This document shows, piece after piece, positions 52,047 to 62,024 of a stretch of DNA of 64,000 bases. Origin of the DNA: an uncultured Syntrophales bacterium (GTDB taxonomy: Bacteria > Desulfobacterota > Syntrophia > Syntrophales > JAAYKM01); the NCBI GenBank assembly GCA_964494155.1, contig CAZBQX010000001.1:43286-107285 (forward strand), written 5' to 3'. How positions within the stretch are numbered: the stretch's first letter is position 1; each line of letters begins with the position of its first letter. Both the position numbers and the translations under genes were made by a program. The notes under the pieces were generated by a model that was not told the DNA's origin, searched no databases, and saw nothing but the letters and a program-made list of their open reading frames with translations.

Positions 52047-52580
52047 TTATTTCTTTTTGCCCTTGTATTTTGCGTCGTATCTCATGATCACTTCCTGGGT
52101 AAGATCGTTTTCGGGCGGAAAGACGATAATGCCGCTTTGTCCCTTGTCGAAGATATAGGTCAAATGTTTTGCCGTCTTCAGATCGTTGCAGATGAGATAC
52201 ACATCTTCCAAAATGCCGTGGGTCAGTTCCCGGTCTCTTTTCCTTACGGCCGCCTCGTTCTCCGCAAGCAGCTTATTGTATTCCTGTACGGCATCCTGAT
52301 AATCTTTCTGCAATTTCGCCAATCCGGCGTCCTTAGCGTTCAATGCTGCTTTCTGACTGATTTGACTCTTTAGCGTCTGAATATTTTTTTCTTTGGCCGC
52401 CATATTTCTGTTCTTGAGTTCCTTGAATGCCGCCAGGTCGTTCATCGACGCAGCTCCGGCAGAAGATTGCTGAATGATCTGATTCACATCCACAAACCCG
52501 ATCCGGGATTCTGCCAGGGCAATGCCGGTGAAGCACAGGCAAACGACACACAGGGTCACCGCTGTATACAATCTGTTCAT
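52047..52580 (-). CDS. Skp/OmpH-family periplasmic chaperone
   Basis: Signal peptide, then a long K/E/Q/A-rich helical region typical of OmpH. RBS GGGAGGTGG. Lies 23 nt after the barrel gene. Confidence 0.7.
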   Translation of the reverse strand: MNRLYTAVTLCVVCLCFTGIALAESRIGFVDVNQIIQQSSAGAASMNDLAAFKELKNRNMAAKEKNIQTLKSQISQKAALNAKDAGLAKLQKDYQDAVQEYNKLLAENEAAVRKRDRELTHGILEDVYLICNDLKTAKHLTYIFDKGQSGIIVFPPENDLTQEVIMRYDAKYKGKKK

Positions 52581-52603: not shown

Positions 52604-53686
52604 CTAGAAACGGATCGGTAAGCGGATTTCTACGGTCGTATCCGCCGCATCGTTGGTCAGTCCGATACCGATGGATACGCTGCAGGAAACCCGATCCGTA
52701 ATGGCATAGTTGACACCGAAATTCATTGACGCAACATTGAAATCCGTATCCGCCAGATCATCCCCATTCTGCTCGGTTTTGAAATAATAGCGCTGCTGAT
52801 AGCTGAGACTCGTGGAAAGCTTTTCATTGAGAGCATAGGCCATTCCCAGGCTGACTTCAATACTGTCACCCGGTTTCACATCGCCGTAACCGCTGCCGAC
52901 ATCCCTTTCAAAATTGTAGTAATAGGCCAAGGTCCCGAACAAAACCGCCGGATCGCTCGTCTTGGCCAAGGTCACTCCCGCGGAAAGTCCATAATGGCCG
53001 CTGCCGGTGGGCAATTCTTTCAATCGTGTCCCGCCATCTGCACCCAGATATTCCGTATCCAAATCATAGGGATCCTTGCCCGTTCGCGACTTGCCCTTGA
53101 GATTGATCACCACGTCGGGAATGTTTTCTCTTTCCTGGACCAGATGATAATAAATTCCGGCTTCGATGTCGCCGATATCGCTGTCCCGGACCGTATACTC
53201 GTTTGTTTCGTTGTTGCTTTCGTATGCCTGCCGGTCCCGGCGGAAGAGATAGGGCACCTTCAGTTCGAACTGCAGATTATCCGTTACACCGTAACGGAGG
53301 TTGATGAAGGGCATGATGACGTCTTTTTTGACGTCTTCCGATAAAATCTTCCCCAGTACAATGGCCTGGAGGATTGTAAAACCGTTAATCGCCAAACGCG
53401 CCCTGGAAGTATGGGAATACTGCACGCCGGGTTCGATGATCAACTTCCGCTTTTCAACCAGGACACCGCCTTTTTCCACATCAATCGTCTCCTGCCTGGC
53501 TGTCGGCGTTTTGGCTTTTTCCACGGTTTCCTGCGTTGCCGTCGGCGTTTGGGCTGTTTCGTCCGCTTCCTGCGTTGCCGTAGGTGTTTGGGCTGTTTCA
53601 TCCTCCTCGCCATACGCAACGGTAACCGCCATACACACTACAAGAAATGAAATTGCCAGTTTTCTTCCCAGATTCATGAGCCTCAT
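52604..53686 (-). CDS. Outer-membrane beta-barrel protein, candidate FapF-type amyloid secretion channel
   Basis: Signal peptide, an acidic T/P/Q repeat linker, alternating beta-strand pattern, and a terminal aromatic residue (IRLPIRF). The assignment to FapF rests on position and architecture only. Confidence 0.6.
   Translation of the reverse strand: MRLMNLGRKLAISFLVVCMAVTVAYGEEDETAQTPTATQEADETAQTPTATQETVEKAKTPTARQETIDVEKGGVLVEKRKLIIEPGVQYSHTSRARLAINGFTILQAIVLGKILSEDVKKDVIMPFINLRYGVTDNLQFELKVPYLFRRDRQAYESNNETNEYTVRDSDIGDIEAGIYYHLVQERENIPDVVINLKGKSRTGKDPYDLDTEYLGADGGTRLKELPTGSGHYGLSAGVTLAKTSDPAVLFGTLAYYYNFERDVGSGYGDVKPGDSIEVSLGMAYALNEKLSTSLSYQQRYYFKTEQNGDDLADTDFNVASMNFGVNYAITDRVSCSVSIGIGLTNDAADTTVEIRLPIRF
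53489..53605 (-). repeat. Three tandem 39-bp units encoding a 13-aa repeat (ETAQTPTATQEAD x2 plus a degenerate EKAKTPTARQETI)
   Basis: Units 2 and 3 (53528-53566 and 53567-53605) differ at about 5 of 39 positions. The first unit is more diverged. Confidence 0.8.
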
Positions 53687-53969
53687 TTTCGTTTCCTCCC
53701 TATGTAATTTGTTTGCTGTAAATTACGGCCGCAATCGGCCCCCTTCACACGATCCAAACGCACAGGAAAAACCGCATCAATGAACAAAGAGCATCATCTG
53801 AAAAAAAACGGTCTCTTGAAAAAGAACAATGACTTGTACTTTTTGTACAAAACCCGCTCTTTAAAAAAGAAAAGATCAGACAGTCACCCGTCCATCGTTA
53901 TTTTATGATATATAACTGTAATTACTGTACAATTTGAAACGCCGGACACAGGGCGTCAAAACGCAAGAA

Positions 53970-54000
53970 TGCTTCACCCCTTTTTGAAAAAGGGATGAAG
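53970..54000 (-). terminator. Hairpin terminator/attenuator after the fapE-like gene
   Basis: On the minus strand, GCTTCATCCCTTTTT-C-AAAAAGGGGTGAAGC (one U-G pair) is followed by ATTCTTGCGTTTTG. Confidence 0.6.
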
Positions 54001-54026
54001 CATTTCCCCCTGTTACCGGCTGAGGC

Positions 54027-54545
54027 TCAAAAAGCCGGCGCGAGAGACTTCAGCGTCTCCATCACTGCAGGCGCCTGGGATTCAGCGACATTGTAGACGG
54101 TCAGATTCACAATCAGGCCATTGGTAACAATGTTATTCGACCCGGGGACCTGATTCACTTGAAACACACCTTCTCCTCCGTTGAAACTGCCCAGAACAGC
54201 GGTGGTCTGAAACTGGAGGTTGTCATCGGATGAGCCGTCGCCTGTCGACGTTAATGTAACCTGCCCTGATTGAGTATCTCCATCGAATCCTGCATCATAA
54301 TCGACTTGCGCCCACTTGTTTCCCTGCGTATCCCAGAAGCCCTTGAAGGTAATCGCAAAATAGAAACCCAGGTAGCCTCCCCGCATATCTTCCAACTGCG
54401 ACTCCCCGAGTGCGACAAGCTCCTGATCTTCGAGTCCCGTCCATTGCTCCGATCCATATACCGGTGTGTACAACGCAAAGTAACCGGCGATACACATAAG
54501 GAATACGACAATGGATCGGTTGGTAAACTTTCGACGGTTACACAT
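54027..54545 (-). CDS. Secreted protein with one amyloid-type repeat, FapE-like by position
   Basis: Signal/TM N-terminus. The C-terminal FNGGEGVFQVNQVPGSNNIVTNGLIVNLTV resembles the repeats of the 200-aa protein. AAGGAG RBS. Confidence 0.5.
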   Translation of the reverse strand: MCNRRKFTNRSIVVFLMCIAGYFALYTPVYGSEQWTGLEDQELVALGESQLEDMRGGYLGFYFAITFKGFWDTQGNKWAQVDYDAGFDGDTQSGQVTLTSTGDGSSDDNLQFQTTAVLGSFNGGEGVFQVNQVPGSNNIVTNGLIVNLTVYNVAESQAPAVMETLKSLAPAF

Positions 54546-54556
54546 AGTCGTTCTCC

Positions 54557-55258
54557 TTAATTCTTCATTTCAAAGGGTACGCTCAACATCGGTGCCCCGA
54601 CGTAGAGGTCCCTGATTCGCCATATTTCTTCCTTTGATATACTCAATTGCTTCAGATCTTCATGGGGGCGATTTGCCTGTTGCGGATTCTTTTCCAGCAC
54701 AAGCAGGAGAATGCCGTTCCATCCCTCCGTGAATTCCCTGACCGGCAGGGCGCGTCGGCCGATAATCGGGTCGCTGATATAAACCCGGTCGCCCAATACC
54801 CCCCGCAGCACCACGAAATGTTTGAACCCCTTGATGTCGAGGAGGACAATGGACGGCAGTTGCAGCTTCCTCAAGGTCTCGAAGGGCACCCTGAACCCCT
54901 CGGCCCTGAATTCCCCGGTTCTTTCCGCGTAGAGCTTCAGATCGAGCATGGAGAACCCCTTTTGGGCAATCAACTCCCGGTCGCCATGGTTCAGGATGTC
55001 TGCGATGACATCGGACTCGGAAATATCCCGGGCGTAATAGTACTTCAGAATCGTCGCCAGGGCGGCGGTGCCGCAACTGATATCGAGTTTCTGCCGGACA
55101 ATGCCCGTGTAGCGCATTTCTTTCATGCTCTTGACGGGTTTTTTCAGGATTGTGCCCTGCGTGCCGGTCCGGAATTCAACCATACCCGCAAACGCAAAAC
55201 TCACTCCGAAGAGAAAGCCCATGATTCCGAGAACGATCACTTTTCCGAAAGTCGCCAT
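54557..55258 (-). CDS. C39-family cysteine peptidase domain protein, FapD-like
   Basis: Catalytic Cys context LDISCGTAALATILKYYY and His context KHFVVLRGV, with an N-terminal signal/anchor. ATG at 55258, 5 nt after GGGGAGG. Confidence 0.75.
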   Translation of the reverse strand: MATFGKVIVLGIMGFLFGVSFAFAGMVEFRTGTQGTILKKPVKSMKEMRYTGIVRQKLDISCGTAALATILKYYYARDISESDVIADILNHGDRELIAQKGFSMLDLKLYAERTGEFRAEGFRVPFETLRKLQLPSIVLLDIKGFKHFVVLRGVLGDRVYISDPIIGRRALPVREFTEGWNGILLLVLEKNPQQANRPHEDLKQLSISKEEIWRIRDLYVGAPMLSVPFEMKN

Positions 55259-55261
55259 CGC

Positions 55262-55312
55262 GCCTCCCCTGCAACGGAAAACAGGGGAGGAGGTGTTGCA
55301 CACCTCCTTCCC
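55262..55312 (-). promoter_or_regulatory. Two mutually exclusive hairpins between the fapC-like and fapD-like genes
   Basis: mRNA sense: GGGGA(A)GGAGGTGT-GCA-ACACCTCCTCCCC (13 bp), then TGTTTTCC. Its 3' arm also pairs as CCTCCCCTG-N10-CAGGGGAGG, which buries the fapD-like RBS. Confidence 0.6.
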
Positions 55313-55350
55313 CTAAATTTTAAATTGAACAAATGTACTCTTAACGCTCA

Positions 55351-56520
55351 CTACTCGCCCGGAGTCGGCGTCACCTCGCCACCGTTCGCGGTCGGCACAT
55401 AGCAGGCGGCAAAGGCATTGGCCTGCATGTTGTTGTTGCCGGCAGCCACGTTGATGCCGAAGTTGCCCGTCATGTTGTTCAGGCTGTCCGCGGAAATCGT
55501 CGCGGTATTCGTACTCCATTTGTACACCGTGGTGACAACTGGAGCCGTCCCCGAAACCGTGCCGCTCAGAACCGCATCAGGCAGAAGCGTCTCAAAGGCA
55601 ATGCCGCCGACGCCGGTCTTCCACGGATTGTCAACCGCACCCTGGATATCAGAATCCATGTCAAGGTGACCGGTCGATGTTCCATTCGGATGTGGTAAAC
55701 CTCCTGACCAAGTATCCAGGTAGAAGTTGTCCGCCTGGTAACTCGTGACAGGGGTGTTCGGGAAGTCAACCGTACCGCTGAATGTCAGACTCACCGGGGC
55801 TTGCTCCACGACTTCTTTCACCGTCGGCGCATTGCAGGTCATGTTGTCCATGGACTTCTGCTGCACGTAGGCTACGGCCATCCCGACTCTCGCCGGCGCC
55901 GTGGCGATGGCGGTGAGATTGGTCTGGGCGTTGTTGTTGCCGGCAACCACATTCAGCCCGACATTACCCGTGGAGTTGTTCAGCACGCCATCCGCGATCG
56001 TCGCATTGTTGGCTGCTCCGTCATTCTTCGTCATGTTGAGCATGGCCTTCTGGACACTGAAAATCTGTGCCCGGGTCAGGGACATGTCCGCTTCACCGGC
56101 AGCATACGAGGCGACATTGCTCTGGGTGTTGCTGTTTCCGGCAGCCACGTTCAGGCCCAAATTGCCCGAAAAGTTCTTCAGCGAGTCTCCCGCAATGGTC
56201 GCATTGTTGTCGGATTCGTAGTTGAAGGTAAAGTTCTTCTCGGGGAACTGGTCATTCTTGGCTACTGCTTCGACCAGACCGCCGACGGTCATGTAATCAC
56301 CCTGCTCTTCAATATCGATATCCACTGTCACACTGTAGAGTTCGAGGGCCAGGTTGGCATAGGCCATGAACTGAAGCGTGGCGTCTGCATTCAGACTTAA
56401 CTGGATATCCTTGTTGATATCTCCGCAACAGCCCCCATTATTATTATCAATTGCTGCAACCGAAACGGGAACCAACATGAGCATTAAAGCTGCACATACG
56501 ACCCATAATTTTCGACTCAT
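55351..56520 (-). CDS. Secreted three-repeat protein, FapC-like major amyloid subunit candidate
   Basis: Signal peptide plus three 36-aa repeats: NNATIAGDSLKNFSGNLGLNVAAGNSNTQSNVASYA, NNATIADGVLNNSTGNVGLNVVAGNNNAQTNLTAIA and NTATISADSLNNMTGNFGINVAAGNNNMQANAFAAC. AAGGAGG RBS. Confidence 0.75.
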   Translation of the reverse strand: MSRKLWVVCAALMLMLVPVSVAAIDNNNGGCCGDINKDIQLSLNADATLQFMAYANLALELYSVTVDIDIEEQGDYMTVGGLVEAVAKNDQFPEKNFTFNYESDNNATIAGDSLKNFSGNLGLNVAAGNSNTQSNVASYAAGEADMSLTRAQIFSVQKAMLNMTKNDGAANNATIADGVLNNSTGNVGLNVVAGNNNAQTNLTAIATAPARVGMAVAYVQQKSMDNMTCNAPTVKEVVEQAPVSLTFSGTVDFPNTPVTSYQADNFYLDTWSGGLPHPNGTSTGHLDMDSDIQGAVDNPWKTGVGGIAFETLLPDAVLSGTVSGTAPVVTTVYKWSTNTATISADSLNNMTGNFGINVAAGNNNMQANAFAACYVPTANGGEVTPTPGE

Positions 56521-57182: not shown

Positions 57183-57542
57183 CTATCTGTAGCCAACCAC
57201 CGTTAGTGTTGAATATGATTGATTATTTAAATTTGCCGGACTCATCGGGGGCTCTGCCGTTCTATTCGGCTCATCCCACAAAATGATACGGTTTTCTCCC
57301 TCAGGCGCGTTTGTGGGTATTAGAGCAACCCCGTTGGTATACCCTCCCCTCACGTCATCGAGTTGTTTTGCGCCAAGCCCTTCGAGGCAGAGAATCGGGA
57401 AATCGGGTATACCTTCTTGCAGACTATACCCCGGAGAGGATGAATTACTCTGTACTGCCCAATCCTCTGCCTGAAGTCCGGGAACGCGGATGACGGCAAT
57501 CAAAACCAGAAGAAAGATGAGAATAGAGAATTGTTTTTTCAT
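57183..57542 (-). CDS. Small secreted protein, FapA-like by position
   Basis: Signal peptide MKKQFSILIFLLVLIAVIRVPGLQA. The tracked ORF starts at 57575, but that extension contains the sigma-54 promoter-like element. Confidence 0.45.
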   Translation of the reverse strand: MKKQFSILIFLLVLIAVIRVPGLQAEDWAVQSNSSSPGYSLQEGIPDFPILCLEGLGAKQLDDVRGGYTNGVALIPTNAPEGENRIILWDEPNRTAEPPMSPANLNNQSYSTLTVVGYR

Positions 57543-57553
57543 GCCCTCATTTG

Positions 57554-57569
57554 AGCAAAGGCCGTACCA
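57554..57569 (-). promoter_or_regulatory. Sigma-54 type -24/-12 promoter candidate
   Basis: The minus strand reads TGGTACGGCCTTTGCT against the consensus TGGCACG-N4-TTGCW. GG and GC are correctly spaced. It is adjacent to a sigma-54 activator gene. Confidence 0.55.
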
Positions 57570-57828: not shown

Positions 57829-59301
57829 TTAGAGATGATACCTTTTCTTTAATTTGTGCATCGTCGTTCGGCTGATATGGAGCTCACGGGCGGCACGGGA
57901 AAGATTTCCCCCGCAAGCATTGAGCACCTCCAGAAGTTTTTTTCTTTCAAAACTGGACCGGATATCCTCCAATGATGAAGGCTCAGCGTTTTCCAAACGG
58001 GGTAGGTGCGCCAAGTCCAGATCAACGGCGGTGATTTCCTCACCCTCCGATACGACGATGCCCTTTCTGATTTTGTTGATCAATTCTCGCACGTTACCCG
58101 GCCAATCATAGTGATTGATGGCCTCCAGGGCATCCTTGGATAATCTTTTTTGCGGGGAGTTTTGGTCCTCACGGCAGAATTTCCCCAGAAAATATTTGGC
58201 CAAAATGACCTTGTCCGGTCCTCTGTCTCGCAATGGCGTCAAACGAATGGGGAAAACACTGAGGCGGTAATAAAGATCATCCCGGAATTTACCTTCATGG
58301 ACGGCCTTTTCGAGATTGCTGTTCGTTGCGGCAATGATGCGGGCGTCGACTTTTCTCGGTTTCAGGCAACCGATGCGTTCGATGATCTTATCTTCCAGAA
58401 AACGCAGCAGCTTTGCCTGAAGCGACCAGGGCATTTCTCCGATTTCATCGAGAAACAGCGTTCCGCCCTCGGCCAGTTCGAATTTCCCTTTCCGAGCCTG
58501 ATACGCGCCGGTGAAAGCACCTCTTTCATGACCGAAAAGTTCCGCTTCCAGGAGTGCTTCCGGGATGGCCGCGCAATTGATGATATACAGCGGATGGTTT
58601 GCTCTCGGGCTCCGCTCATGGATCGCCCTGGCGGCAAGCTCTTTTCCCGTGCCGCTTTCCCCGAGCAGCAGGACGGGGATTTCCGTCGGAGCGACCTTTC
58701 TGATCAGGGAAAACAAAACCAGCATCTGTCGGCACGTTCCGACATATTCTTCGATGATTTCGCCATCGTTATGTTTCAAAATTTCGCGGTCAATCAGATT
58801 CAGCAGGTGCAAATGAACGTCGCCGTTCAAACCTGCAAGGTGGCGGGTCAACCTCTGGAAAAAGGTTTTTCTCGTGTGGGCGGCAAGATAATCATCCGAA
58901 AATTTAAGACTGAGATGGCAGAATATACATTCTTCAATTCCATCCGGTATGGAGCGACCACAATACGGACAGACATCCCACCTGACATTTCCCGCACTGT
59001 TGCGGATGAAAGACCACAGGCGATTCATGGTCTCTTCATCGTCGTAGTAAAAACCCAGATGAGATCTGTTGTTTTCCTTGCAGATGACCCACGCAGGCAA
59101 ATCCAGATCATGCCGGCCACCGATCAGCAAACGAAGCCGCGTCTGATCATCAACGCCGTCGGTTTTTCCTTCGACCAGGGCGCCTCCCAAACTGATATTG
59201 GTAATGGTGACGGGACATGGCCTTTCTTCTCCCGACGTGATGCCTGAAGTGACGATTTCACCGCTGATTGATCGGTTGATTCTAAAATCTATTCTTGGCA
59301 T
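57829..59301 (-). CDS. Sigma-54-dependent transcriptional activator with N-terminal PilZ domain
   Basis: PilZ motifs RIDFR (RxxxR) and NISLGG (D/NxSxxG). Cys4 ribbon CPYCG...CIFCH. AAA+ Walker A GESGTGKE, GAFTGA and Walker B FLDEIGE. Fis-type HTH at the C-terminus. ATG at 59301 after GGGGGGAG. Confidence 0.85.
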   Translation of the reverse strand: MPRIDFRINRSISGEIVTSGITSGEERPCPVTITNISLGGALVEGKTDGVDDQTRLRLLIGGRHDLDLPAWVICKENNRSHLGFYYDDEETMNRLWSFIRNSAGNVRWDVCPYCGRSIPDGIEECIFCHLSLKFSDDYLAAHTRKTFFQRLTRHLAGLNGDVHLHLLNLIDREILKHNDGEIIEEYVGTCRQMLVLFSLIRKVAPTEIPVLLLGESGTGKELAARAIHERSPRANHPLYIINCAAIPEALLEAELFGHERGAFTGAYQARKGKFELAEGGTLFLDEIGEMPWSLQAKLLRFLEDKIIERIGCLKPRKVDARIIAATNSNLEKAVHEGKFRDDLYYRLSVFPIRLTPLRDRGPDKVILAKYFLGKFCREDQNSPQKRLSKDALEAINHYDWPGNVRELINKIRKGIVVSEGEEITAVDLDLAHLPRLENAEPSSLEDIRSSFERKKLLEVLNACGGNLSRAARELHISRTTMHKLKKRYHL

Positions 59302-59871
59302 AAGCTCCCCCCTTATTGCTTTCATGTGTCATTCTGAAAGAGCAACGATTATTTGACACCCCCCCGAAAAGCATCTCAAGCCTTGATATCGGTTTAAAAA
59401 ATCCCCCTCACCAACCTTACTGCTAAGAAAGTAAATGTAAATAATGAATGATTAAGCCCAAAAAAACGACCATCAGGGATGTTCAATCTTCCCTGATTCT
59501 TCGAAAATCCGTTTATGGTTGTTTTTTGATGAACTGGGTTGCCGAAAACTGCCGTCAGACGTCTTGCTTTAGAAAAGGATACAACAGCAACATAAACCTG
59601 TGCGTGTTAGTGTACCAATATTGTTTTATTTACGAGAAAGCAATACGTAATTATTTGTTACTTTATCTCAGGTTAAAACTGTTATTATGATACGGCAAAC
59701 AAAATCTTTTCCTTTATCCGACGTTTACCGGACGTTTTTCAGAGACACCGTGCAGCAAGGTATTGCATCTCTCCCCAGCGATATGATCCGGCAGACGTGT
59801 TTCTCCTCGTGATTTATATCAAAATCCAGTATGCTGCGGTGAAACAATAGAAAGGACAGAGTTGTAAACAT

Positions 59872-60240
59872 ATGCGCTATCCCTTTTTCATCATACTCCA
59901 TGCTGAACCGACCGCGGCAGCGACCAACGGTTGGGGTCTCGACGGAGCCAATGTAAACGTCTGGGTGATGGAATCCAACATTGAAGCCGCTGTCGCGGCT
60001 GCGAAATCGCACATCCTGGGTTACGCCTGGATTCCCGGGGATGTGCGCTACGCCGGCGAAGTGACGGGAGAATTAATCAAAGCCGTGGATGATGTTGAGA
60101 CGGGCAATTACGAAGAGGCGCTGCAAAGCGGTATTGCTGCGGCTTTTTATGGATGGACGAAAGAAAACAGATCTCCCGAATTTTTTGAATATCGTTCCCT
60201 GGACCCGTACCCGAAAGCAGTAAATCATCTTTTTCACTAA
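59872..60240 (+). CDS. Hypothetical protein
   Basis: 122-aa ORF with balanced composition, lying 14 nt upstream of the next gene. No family recognised. Confidence 0.55.
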   Translation: MRYPFFIILHAEPTAAATNGWGLDGANVNVWVMESNIEAAVAAAKSHILGYAWIPGDVRYAGEVTGELIKAVDDVETGNYEEALQSGIAAAFYGWTKENRSPEFFEYRSLDPYPKAVNHLFH

Positions 60241-60254
60241 AAGAGGTTAAATAA

Positions 60255-62024
60255 ATGGACATTTACGGATCTTTCAAATTTCTGAAGCGAAAAATTGTTA
60301 TTCGTTTACGGGACAGAGTGTGCAGCACACCGGAGGAACTCTTGTCGAGCGATCTCTTCTTCGAAGTCATGACCCGTTTCATCAATGACCTCAAGCGCCG
60401 CGAAGCCCCCCTGCTTCATATTTTCAACAAGCCTGTCGGAGAAATTGATGAAGGGGATGTCAAGCAACTCATCGAGGCTTTTCATATTTTGAGCAAAATG
60501 AAAGCCGACGCAGTACCGAAACTCATGGCCGACGGAACACGTTTCGTCCGGGATCCCTCTTTGCTGAACATGTTTGTGGAGCGTCTGTACAACTTCTGGC
60601 GTGATTTTGATCGTTTTATTATATGCGATTCGACGGGGGACCGTCTGGATCAGCGCCCATACCGTACCTTCAATGCAACAATCGAATCCCTCATGCACCT
60701 GGTCCGCCAGGTCTATCGGGAGATTCAGGAGAATATCACCGGGAACCACCCCAGCGTTTACCGCCAGATCCGGGCCGGCGCCGAAGTTGCTGTCATCGCG
60801 TTGCCCAAAGATCTGGCCTTGCCCATTGGAAGTTATCGTAAACTGATGGACGTTCCGGTAATTCGTCAAATTCTTCTTTATCCGCCCCTGCTGCTCAACC
60901 CACCGATGAACAAAAGGACCGGGAAATTCGAGCGTATCAACCAGAATCCACTCAACCTGATTGAAGTCGATCCTGATGAGTGGCTGTGTTATCCCGCGCG
61001 GATCGGTTCCCTCCTGATCCTGATCTATGTCCATGAAAAATTTTATGAACTGGGTTTTTCTCTTTGCAACCTCTTCGAACTGGCGGACGATGAAAGTCTG
61101 AACAAACCCGCCGACGCTGTTTATCTGTTCGGCGCCCCCGGATCGGAACTAGATGTTCTGGCACCAATGCCGACAGTATTCTATGATGACGAAGCCGTCG
61201 GCATGATCATCGCCGCCTGCCCAAATGACGATCAGTACGGATACTTCGGGTATCTGAAAAAGATGGCGCTGACCCTGCATAATGTAAAAGTCATGAAACA
61301 GGGGAAGATGCCCTTCCATGGTGCCCTGGTCAGAATTGTCTTAAAAGGAGATCAGGCTCTGACCCTTCTCATAATCGGCGATACGGGGGCAGGCAAATCG
61401 GAAACCCTCGAAGCATTCCGGATCATCGGTGAAAACCAAATCGAAGATATAACCATCATCGCCGACGACATGGGCTCTCTGGAAATCTCTTCGGAAGGCC
61501 GGATCATCGGATACGGAACCGAAATCGGCGCTTTTGTGCGCCTGGATGATCTGCAGCCTGGTTACGCGTTCGGACAGCTCGACCGGGCAATCATTATGAA
61601 TCCAAATCAGGTCAATGCCCGGGTGGTTTTACCGGTGACAACCTATGAAAACGTCGTCAGGGGCATCCCGGTGGATATGGTGCTTTACGCCAATAACTAT
61701 GAAGAAATCGATGAGGACCATCCCATTATCGAGCCCCTACCCTCGGCGGAAACGGCCCTGCGTGTTTTTCGTGAAGGGACCGCCATGAGCAAGGGAACAA
61801 CCACCGCAACCGGTTTGGTGCATACCTATTTTGTGAATGTATTTGGGGCGGTTCAGTATAAGGCCCTGCACGATGAAATCGCTAACAGGTTTTTCCATGC
61901 TTTCTTCGCAGAAAAAATATTCGTAGGTCAGCTCCGAACGAAGCTGGGTATCGCCGGGTGTGAAAGAAAAGCGCCCGAAGAGGCCGCACAGGCTTTGTTG
62001 CAGATGATCAGCCCGGGCAAGTGA
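60255..62024 (+). CDS. Uncharacterised protein with HPr-kinase/PEPCK-like P-loop domain
   Basis: FHGALVRIVLKGDQALTLLIIGDTGAGKSETLEAF matches the HprK pattern HG-LV...G-G-LI-G-SG-GKSE-ALEL. The roughly 340-aa N-terminal region is unrecognised. AAGAGG RBS. Confidence 0.7.
   Translation: MDIYGSFKFLKRKIVIRLRDRVCSTPEELLSSDLFFEVMTRFINDLKRREAPLLHIFNKPVGEIDEGDVKQLIEAFHILSKMKADAVPKLMADGTRFVRDPSLLNMFVERLYNFWRDFDRFIICDSTGDRLDQRPYRTFNATIESLMHLVRQVYREIQENITGNHPSVYRQIRAGAEVAVIALPKDLALPIGSYRKLMDVPVIRQILLYPPLLLNPPMNKRTGKFERINQNPLNLIEVDPDEWLCYPARIGSLLILIYVHEKFYELGFSLCNLFELADDESLNKPADAVYLFGAPGSELDVLAPMPTVFYDDEAVGMIIAACPNDDQYGYFGYLKKMALTLHNVKVMKQGKMPFHGALVRIVLKGDQALTLLIIGDTGAGKSETLEAFRIIGENQIEDITIIADDMGSLEISSEGRIIGYGTEIGAFVRLDDLQPGYAFGQLDRAIIMNPNQVNARVVLPVTTYENVVRGIPVDMVLYANNYEEIDEDHPIIEPLPSAETALRVFREGTAMSKGTTTATGLVHTYFVNVFGAVQYKALHDEIANRFFHAFFAEKIFVGQLRTKLGIAGCERKAPEEAAQALLQMISPGK

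Follow-up and report, generated by a model that had tools for sequence, protein, structure and literature searches.

Does a gene with three imperfect repeats in the genome of a strict anaerobe encode the major subunit of a Fap functional amyloid? The gene lies at positions 55,351 to 56,520, minus strand, of a 64,000-nucleotide (nt) stretch of DNA from an uncultured Syntrophales bacterium (GenBank assembly GCA_964494155.1, contig CAZBQX010000001.1, positions 43,286 to 107,285 of the forward strand). We refer to this whole stretch as the window. An initial annotation, made from the letters alone, had seen in the gene the R1-L1-R2-L2-R3 plan of FapC, in which three repeats (R) are separated by two linkers (L). 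FapC is the principal subunit of the Fap amyloid fibre of Pseudomonas biofilms. We find that the product of 55351-56520 is very probably a major subunit of FapC type, belonging to a Fap functional-amyloid system of this bacterium.

A FapC homologue with three imperfect repeats

The open reading frame (ORF; 55351 to 56520, minus strand) encodes 389 amino acids (aa) and a stop codon, and the ribosome-binding site AAGGAGG lies 5' of its ATG. Its assignment as a fapC homologue draws on FapC structures in the PDB, the NCBIfam FapC model, the Pfam family PF27129, AlphaFold 2 (AF2) models and ratios of nonsynonymous to synonymous substitution rates (dN/dS). Its parts run as follows.

56452 to 56520, minus strand: Sec signal peptide, aa 1-23 (MSRKLWVVCAALMLMLVPVSVAA, followed by ID), read directly from the sequence; no lipobox
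56257 to 56451, minus strand: N-terminal region, aa 24-88, with C31 and C32; conserved in the clade (alignment A1) and predicted disordered
56101 to 56208, minus strand: R1, aa 105-140
56011 to 56100, minus strand: L1, 30 aa, aa 141-170
55903 to 56010, minus strand: R2, aa 171-206
55402 to 55509, minus strand: R3, aa 338-373, the remainder of layer 3 (see below), with C373 at its end

The n, h and c regions of the signal peptide, which ends in VAA before ID, were read by eye; AF2 places a helix at residues 2 to 15 and disorder after it. FapF exports its substrates from a periplasmic intermediate. Residues 24 to 88 are conserved inside the Syntrophales clade, and the predicted local distance difference test score (pLDDT) is below 50 for residues 1 to 74.

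The three 36-aa repeats were annotated with exact coordinates and sequences. They share 56 to 58% identity without gaps, and in BLOSUM62 local alignments they score 103 to 109 against one another, compared with 29 to 31 ± 5 for composition-preserving shuffles (z 13 to 15); none of 2,000 shuffles matched the real scores. The annotated consensus holds at all positions except the last of R1, which is Ser and not Ala. The linker lengths, 30 aa for L1 and 131 aa for L2, are as claimed, and the description of L2 as rich in Thr, Val, Pro and Gly agrees with its most frequent residues (17 Thr, 16 Val, 12 Gly, 11 Ala, 10 Pro and 10 Ser).

Are these FapC repeats? We took the repeat sequences of FapC from Pseudomonas sp. 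UK4 (UK4 FapC) from the phmmer alignment to the PDB and aligned them with those of the window protein. All nine pairs scored above their shuffles (z 6.8 to 9.4, with 0 of 2,000 shuffles reaching the real score). The annotation had named failure against shuffled controls as a refutation of its reading, and the outcome favours that reading. Searched against all PDB chains with phmmer, the protein matched FapC alone (9nqd and 9u4u, E 1.6e-15, aa 82-235). NCBIfam ranked FapC first (E 1.4e-36, covering model positions 33-313 of 321), well ahead of FapB at 1.8e-9. The precomputed Pfam assignment is PF27129, FapBC; a Pfam release older than PF27129 gave no match for the FapB, FapC, FapA-slot or FapE-slot proteins.

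UK4 FapC has a repeat motif and five inner-core Asn/Gln residues per layer (PMC12392863). Across 26 homologues of the window protein, all three repeats keep an invariant series of G, N, G, N, A/G, N, Q and N, a pattern that agrees with the FapC repeat motif as defined in that paper. The conserved Asn/Gln ladders that had been annotated match the inner-core Asn/Gln of UK4, within a fold that is here predicted.

The position of the gene points the same way. It is the second FapBC-type gene of a cluster in which FapB, FapD, FapF and FapE-like genes lie on one strand within 4.5 kb; a survey of the GTDB called FapC as the second gene with FapBC repeats accompanied by at least three other fap genes (Jiang et al. 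2025, PMC12392863). We assign the role of major subunit to this protein because its gene is the second and longer FapBC gene, because it matches its own model best and because a hairpin follows it directly. The shuffle tests, the PDB, NCBIfam, PF27129, Foldseek (below) and operon position all point to FapC. Against orthologues, dN/dS is 0.16 to 0.30 over the whole protein and 0.06 to 0.19 in its core; the reading frame is intact, and purifying selection is strong. The protein is an addition to a known family, with a few lineage-specific differences, and is unlikely to surprise a specialist.

The predicted fold and its layers

UK4 FapC, as solved by cryo-electron microscopy (cryo-EM), has layers of about 52 residues (45-96, 110-161 and 173-234), with a short disordered loop at 186-197 (PMC12392863). 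To these layers we can relate the following parts of the window protein.

56101 to 56256, minus strand: layer 1 (imperfect repeat 1, IR1; about 52 aa), aa 89-140, assigned by analogy with UK4 45-96
55903 to 56100, minus strand: L1 and R2, aa 141-206, assigned from AF2 strands and invariant residues
55825 to 55875, minus strand: first strand of layer 3, aa 216-232, VAYVQQKSMDNMTCNAP, with C229; aligns with UK4
55510 to 55824, minus strand: insertion in layer 3, aa 233-337, from two AF2 models
55591 to 55743, minus strand: conserved block, aa 260-310, with Q262, Y267, W271, H277, G284-H285-x-D287-x-D289, G305 and F309

A first AF2 model was built from an alignment of 26 homologues and a second from a deeper, more diverse one. 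The first predicts a beta-rich core in the form of a beta-solenoid, with pLDDT 80 to 90 for about aa 80-250 and 320-375, and the second concurs on this core. Foldseek gave a single significant match in the PDB, to FapC 9u4u_A as solved by cryo-EM (E 8.5e-6, probability 1.00, target-normalised template modeling score 0.56, 26% identity). The annotation had asked for such a model, and FapC is indeed what it resembles best, as a predicted monomer that aligns at large root mean square deviation (rmsd).

Where do the layers begin? Layer 1 holds the invariant residues Q91, N96, N105, G119, N120, G122, N124, A127, G128, N131, Q133 and N135; the corresponding set in layer 2 is Q157, N162, G185, N186, G188, N190, G194, N197, Q199 and N201. 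AF2 predicts strands at 147-160, 163-167, 170-175, 184-194 and 199-207 (pLDDT 73 to 91). Soon after R2, VAYVQQKSMDNMTCN (aa 216-230, with invariant Q221 and N226) aligns with UK4 EQVSLDNHFLNEASSK, the start of IR3. Since Q91 and N96 precede R1, Q157 and N162 precede R2, and strands run across L1, the structural repeat would be about 52 aa and not 36. Layer 2 would then structurally comprise aa ~152-206, leaving just about 10 aa of L1 as real linker. The annotated 36-aa repeats, read as fitting a stacked amyloid core, are therefore the conserved two-thirds of the predicted layers, and the core also takes in most of L1 and the beginning of L2.

A conserved block in the second linker

In the models, most of L2 is inserted into layer 3, where UK4 carries its short disordered loop. 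In both AF2 runs two strands, aa 233-251 and 316-334 (pLDDT ~83), flank a low-confidence knob (pLDDT 47 to 63). The deeper second alignment did not improve confidence in the knob, which stayed at 47 to 63 with no assignable fold. The insertion is the fastest-evolving segment of the protein, with dN/dS of 0.18 to 0.50, yet it is constrained. Ten residues of the block, which lies in the knob, are invariant in 29 FapC relatives whose mean column identity is 32%. Linker length had been annotated as the variable part of the plan. L2 does evolve fastest, but it also holds these ten invariant residues and two long predicted strands.

How widespread is the block? Besides Syntrophales, it occurs in FapC homologues of Nitrospirota, Bryobacterales, Halomonas, Stenotrophomonas and Shewanella; neither UK4 FapC nor the Thermodesulfobacteria clade has it. 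A search with L2 only against 1.8 billion representative proteins returned 38 matches, of which three inspected ones of FapC size and 18 aligned ones are FapC-like. One match, P0030 (1881 aa, nine matched stretches), was considered as a multi-copy L2 protein and rejected, as it is a Thr/Ser/Ala-rich repetitive sequence whose match is compositional only. We also rejected the conserved GG of L2 (VGG before IAFE) as a C39 peptidase site, because the hydrophobic pattern upstream does not fit.

The block matched no domain family or structure in Pfam, in Foldseek or in the L2 search (no domain-level fold search was made), and a limited search of the Fap literature found no description of it. Earlier work treats Fap linkers as variable or disordered and predicts some beta-strands in them (PMC12392863). 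FapC proteins with the block may form a large subfamily found across Syntrophales, Nitrospirota, Acidobacteriota, Xanthomonadales, Halomonas and Shewanella. If the models are right, the Q-Y-W-H-GHxDxD-GG-F block may sit on a beta-hairpin stalk and be shown once per 14.4-Å monomer along the fibre, where it might form a metal site of His and Asp or offer a surface on which partner cells or matrix dock.

Cysteines

The FapC homologue contains five Cys: C9 in the signal peptide, C31, C32, C229 in L2 and C373. The annotation had correctly placed a single Cys at the end of R3 (C373) and a CC pair after the signal peptide (GGCCGD; C31 and C32), and had overlooked C229. The pair carries no weight as a functional feature: a 95%-identical homologue has GGYSGD instead, and none of the other relatives has the pair. 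By this comparison it is a peculiarity of the strain. In contrast, C229 and C373 are both kept in 11 of the 11 closest homologues (P0001-P0011), and both fall within layer 3. In more distant homologues C229 is lost first and C373 later.

UK4 FapC ends, directly after R3, in CTVCAAGTGSKLAF with its CTVC (bioRxiv 10.64898/2026.04.28.719052). C373 corresponds approximately to the first Cys of CTVC, and the second is missing here (CYVP). The anaerobic host makes extracellular disulfides less likely.

The fap operon

The genes around the fapC homologue, and those elements of them that bear on the argument, are these.

57183 to 57542, minus strand: fapA-slot gene, 119-aa secreted protein from ATG 57542, placed by position and by orthologues of 119 aa
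56542 to 57144, minus strand: fapB homologue, 200 aa, three repeats (NCBIfam FapB, PF27129)
54557 to 55258, minus strand: fapD homologue, periplasmic C39 cysteine peptidase, ATG 55258 after GGAGG
54027 to 54545, minus strand: short fapE-like gene, 172 aa, one Fap-type repeat, assigned by transitive homology
52604 to 53686, minus strand: fapF homologue, outer-membrane amyloid transporter (PDB, NCBIfam)
53490 to 53599, within fapF: 39-nt tandem repeat, 2.8 copies, units of the ETAQTPTATQEAD type, FapF aa ~30-66
52047 to 52580, minus strand: Skp/OmpH-family periplasmic chaperone, 23 nt 3' of fapF (OmpH E 1.1e-20)

The FapB homologue matches NCBIfam FapB at E 1.1e-24 over model positions 7-189 of 190, and the FapC model at just 0.0094. 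It is predicted to be a minor subunit or nucleator. The FapD homologue matches NCBIfam C39_FapD at 2.4e-53 and Peptidase_C39 at 4.4e-21; the catalytic motifs SCG...HFVVL...DP and an N-terminal hydrophobic signal can be read from its sequence. The FapE-like protein, at 172 aa compared with about 250 aa for FapE, covers the N-terminal half alone and has no direct NCBIfam FapE match. Its assignment runs through relatives: a Thermodesulfatator orthologue (L009:7900-8430) matches NCBIfam FapE at 6.8e-5, the profile of the FapE-like protein (A3) finds the NCBIfam-confirmed FapE genes of two gammaproteobacterial loci (L015 and L044), and two close homologues carry PF27129.

The FapF homologue matches the solved structures 5o65, 5o67 and 5o68 (E 3e-40, aa 80-360) and NCBIfam FapF (E 3.5e-59, aligned from model position 77). 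Past its signal peptide, the N-terminal ~55 aa consist of Pro/Thr/Gln/Glu-rich 13-aa tandem repeats, a composition incompatible with a coiled coil.

A 130-aa start for the fapA-slot gene was rejected, as the promoter described below lies inside the longer ORF and orthologues have 119 aa. A profile of the FapA-slot protein finds ORFs at the same position in Thermodesulfobacteria, Nitrospirota, Methylohalomonas and Halomonas at weak E values (4e-5 to 0.01). Across these phyla the ORFs have the motifs L..vRGx and (I/V)ILWDE in common, and they too are without any NCBIfam match.

A Skp/OmpH gene follows fapF also in two Syntrophales loci (L002, L006) and in that of a Nitrospirota bin (L011), and in none of the other fetched loci. 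We speculate that Skp might step in to hold periplasmic substrates. The remainder of the window is ordinary chromosome, with SecA, LigA, biotin synthase and BirA among its genes, and Rfam gave no match in the window.

Predicted regulatory elements

Three elements point to how the operon may be controlled.

57554 to 57569, minus strand: sigma-54-type promoter TGGTAC-N5-TTGCT (-24/-12), TGGTACGGCCTTTGCT, by consensus match
57829 to 59325, minus strand: sigma-54 enhancer-binding protein (EBP) with PilZ-like N-terminal domain, zinc ribbon, AAA+ and HTH_8 domains (Sigma54_activat E 3.3e-69)
55275 to 55314, minus strand: hairpin rich in GC, with UGUUUU after it, in the gap from the fapC stop to the fapD start; terminator-like in a consensus scan

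The -24/-12 pattern occurs once in 64 kb, compared with 0.03 matches expected. It lies inside the 130-aa ORF call, so the first gene of the operon more likely starts at ATG 57542. The pattern is present on the plus strand in 17 of 49 fap loci, and in all 14 of these that were checked against gene coordinates it lies 5' of the first fap gene.

Homologues of the EBP stand beside most fap loci. Residues 1-110 of the window EBP (58996-59325) are PilZ-like, with the motifs RxxxR (RIDFR) and NxSxxG (NISLGG); the PilZ score is 20.3 bits here and 31.1 bits, over the gathering score, in the orthologue of L006. The Halomonas counterpart carries a VpsR-type domain in place of the PilZ-like one. In Pseudomonas fluorescens, fap transcription needs BrfA, an EBP that senses cyclic di-GMP (c-di-GMP) (PMC13101488). 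This precedent, taken with the PilZ-like domain of the window EBP, suggests by analogy that fap operons may be under c-di-GMP control via different, interchangeable sensor domains.

The 91 nt around the post-fapC hairpin have a minimum free energy of -34.3 kcal/mol (z -3.7). A hairpin with a U-tract, different in sequence, stands at the equivalent position in L003, L006, L002, L009 and L011, so the position is kept in three lineages (Syntrophales, Thermodesulfatator and the Nitrospirota bin). A partial terminator after subunit genes is a common arrangement for fibre subunits. We infer that this hairpin may be a partial terminator or attenuator, by which transcripts of the fapA-slot gene, fapB and fapC would exceed those of fapD, fapE and fapF. 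A second terminator-like hairpin (53958-54004, minus strand) follows the fapE-like gene, and a conserved gap of about 340 nt then precedes fapF.

A candidate FapD cleavage site

Rouse et al. reported the target of FapD as unknown, Fap proteins as lacking canonical C39 sites and FapE alone as losing its first ~70 residues (PMC5557850). Might the FapE-like protein carry a site of another kind? About 25 residues past its signal peptide we found the double-glycine-leader-like motif LGESQLEDMRGG, followed by Y (aa 46-58, nt 54372-54410, minus strand); LGESQLEDMRGGYLGF is the stretch over the candidate GG site. The pattern (E/Q)LSDxELxxMRG(R/K/G)(F/Y) recurs in 39 of the 42 FapE-slot proteins of the fetched loci, from several phyla. 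The double-glycine leader consensus of C39 peptidases is LSxxELxxIxGG. The FapE-slot motif agrees with it at -12, -11, -8, -7, -4 and -2; only -1 deviates in gammaproteobacteria, and the window protein has a true GG. Hence, we regard the leader-like motif of FapE-slot proteins as a candidate FapD cleavage site.

A similar, less conserved motif, LGAKQLDDVRGG followed by Y, is present in the FapA-slot protein (aa 56-68, about nt 57339-57377, minus strand). It was rejected as a strict GG site for C39, because the second Gly varies within the clade (RGG, RGR, RGM, RGK), and because the motif is missing from most gammaproteobacterial FapA-slot ORFs.

The combined proposal that L2 is a functional module in an undescribed FapC subfamily and that the FapE motif is the FapD site seems to us rather unlikely.

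Evidence against the assignment and alternative explanations

Several observations weigh against calling 55351-56520 a FapC-type major subunit. Its NCBIfam FapC score, 126.8 bits, is under the equivalog cut-off of 195 bits, and all Fap proteins of the cluster score under their own equivalog cut-offs. The whole-model confidence of AF2 is moderate (mean pLDDT 67.6, predicted template modeling score 0.54, for a monomer prediction), and the rmsd of the alignment to 9u4u_A is large. The C-terminal CxxC of UK4 is cut to one Cys. The FapA-slot protein has no family match in Pfam or NCBIfam and found nothing in the PDB by alignment-profile search. The FapF homologue has tandem repeats in place of the Pseudomonas-type N-terminal coiled coil, which in Pseudomonas is needed for FapC secretion (PMC5557850). 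The close homologues are all labelled "hypothetical protein" and come from metagenome bins, and fibres, secretion or expression are known in none of them; the attenuator and the c-di-GMP control are read from sequence alone. The NCBIfam model concerned (NF058558) is tuned to pseudomonad-like sequences. The sub-cut-off score counts against "equivalog by NCBI's rule" and not against homology.

Could the repeats be a compositional accident of an Asn/Gly/Ala-rich secreted protein, or the gene a decaying remnant? The sequence is biased in composition, and the L2 match to P0030 is purely compositional. However, the repeats exceed composition-keeping shuffles by z 7 to 15, the frame is intact and under strong purifying selection, and a full syntenic set of accessory genes is present; we take this explanation to be effectively refuted. 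A different concern is that the roles might be swapped, with the 200-aa FapB-like protein as the bulk fibre subunit and the FapC homologue as a minor or accessory one. In favour of this, fibres of Pseudomonas contain relatively more FapB once fapA is deleted (PMC3792158), the protein in the FapA slot of the window is not recognisable as FapA, and the FapB homologue too has three repeats. Yet each gene is best at its own model (FapC 1.4e-36 versus 1.8e-9 for one, FapB 1.1e-24 versus 0.0094 for the other), the order B then C is conserved, and the hairpin stands after the fapC homologue and not after fapB. An exchange of roles is accordingly very improbable.

A slightly less improbable idea, still one we would bet against, is that the protein is a FapC-family display scaffold or adhesin in which the Trp/His/Asp block of L2 does the work, by binding metal, partner cells or matrix, and the core is an anchor. 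Among 29 relatives of several phyla the block is as invariant as the core ladder, purifying selection acts on L2 (dN/dS 0.18 to 0.27 in the three more diverged comparisons), and the hairpin stalk predicted by AF2 would keep the block off the core. Against this, UK4 FapC and the Thermodesulfobacteria lack the block and keep the rest of the system, so it is not essential to Fap; neither a domain family nor a structure matches it, and the knob is modelled at low confidence. Moreover, a display function would add to the amyloid reading and not replace it. We therefore keep to the assignment as FapC-type major subunit.

Distribution and comparison with known systems

Fap operons were first placed in Beta-, Gamma- and Deltaproteobacteria only, with one atypical deltaproteobacterial case (PMC3792158), and 1172 fap clusters have since been counted in the GTDB (PMC12392863). 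The gene order of the cluster is repeated in a 77%-identical relative (92-kb contig), and more than 40 loci recovered from genomes of the GTDB show it as well. The close homologues come from Syntrophales metagenome bins. FapC relatives within full or partial fap clusters (L007-L012 and L021) were found in Thermodesulfobacterium (among them one from a cultured strain, T. hydrogeniphilum DSM 14290), in Thermodesulfatator, and in the Nitrospirota bin and a Bryobacterales bin, outside the proteobacterial range given in 2013.

With UK4 FapC (9u4u, 9nqd; PMC12392863, PMC12459412) the window protein shares a signal peptide, the N-R1-L1-R2-L2-R3-C plan, the motif GNxGxNxAAGxxNxQxN with its invariant Asn/Gln, a Cys that directly follows R3 and the position as second FapBC gene of the operon; its predicted solenoid may also have three Greek-key layers. 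The sequence similarity is remote, however. The protein is 389 aa long and not 250, its N-terminal region has about 65 aa compared with about 37, and L2 has 131 aa compared with 35; it carries the W/H/GHxDxD block and a single Cys where UK4 has CTVC. Its host is a strict anaerobe of the Thermodesulfobacteriota and no pseudomonad.

A long L2 is in itself not unusual: it measures 119 aa in P. aeruginosa PAO1, 103 aa in P. fluorescens Pf-5 and 259 aa in P. putida F1 (PMC12392863). Like these, the window protein has predicted beta-strands just before R3 (250-GTVSGFIPAIVGFKT-264 in PAO1, LSGTVSGTAPVVTTVYKW here). The long Pseudomonas linkers are described as intrinsically disordered and variable, whereas ten invariant residues mark L2 in the window protein and in relatives from Xanthomonadales, Halomonas, Shewanella, Nitrospirota and Acidobacteriota.

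Desulfohalobium FapC (PMC3792158), the only deltaproteobacterial Fap known in 2013, likewise lies outside Beta- and Gammaproteobacteria, in a lineage related to sulfate reducers. It has one repeat fewer, and its operon departs from fapABCDEF. In the Syntrophales bacterium the protein keeps all three canonical repeats and is encoded in a single colinear cluster. Is the system closer to curli? CsgA of Escherichia coli is also a secreted functional amyloid with imperfect repeats, Asn/Gln ladders, an outer-membrane secretion system and a nucleator paralogue. Its repeat is unrelated, at about 20 aa without linkers, and forms a simple beta-helix and not a Greek key. We found no curlin match in Pfam or NCBIfam and no csg genes in the cluster, and the Foldseek match to CsgA (8enq) was not significant, at an E value of 0.27.

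Proposed mechanism and implications

How might this system work? Unless a feature was itself found here, the steps that follow are carried over from the Pseudomonas system. The PilZ-type sigma-54 activator, probably responsive to c-di-GMP, would fire the -24/-12 promoter; both sequences are present in the window. The post-fapC hairpin would then give more transcript over the fapA-slot gene, fapB and fapC than over fapD, fapE and fapF. FapC, which has a signal peptide, would be exported by Sec, held unfolded in the periplasm and threaded through the FapF barrel with the aid of the C39 peptidase FapD and the FapE-like protein. Outside the cell, each imperfect repeat of the monomer is predicted to form one of three stacked cross-beta layers of Greek-key type. 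Ladders to which every repeat gives four Asn and one Gln, residues that are conserved, would hold the layers together. Monomers would stack end to end into fibres, with FapB as nucleator, and the 105-aa insertion in layer 3 would project on its beta-hairpin stalk, bearing the conserved Trp/His/Asp block. We infer amyloid formation, secretion, attenuation and c-di-GMP control for this system.

A canonical three-repeat FapC with a full operon in a Syntrophales genome extends the known family and makes the protein a candidate matrix protein in anaerobic digesters and syntrophic granules. If the proposal for L2 is true, its block, in an obligate syntroph, could link amyloid fibres to interspecies aggregation. 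Distant operons also serve as comparators. Universal among them are the Asn/Gln ladder, FapD, the FapF barrel, the sigma-54 promoter with its EBP and the post-fapC hairpin; the FapF coiled coil, the CxxC and a recognisable FapA are lineage-specific. The same comparison reveals the conserved block of L2 and the leader-like motif of FapE, the candidate FapD site.

Divergent from the activator gene, two ORFs of 122 and 589 aa occupy 59872-62024 on the plus strand. They belong to no Pfam or NCBIfam family, bar a weak partial match resembling PEP-carboxykinase, and the pair is kept beside the fap locus in L001 and L002.

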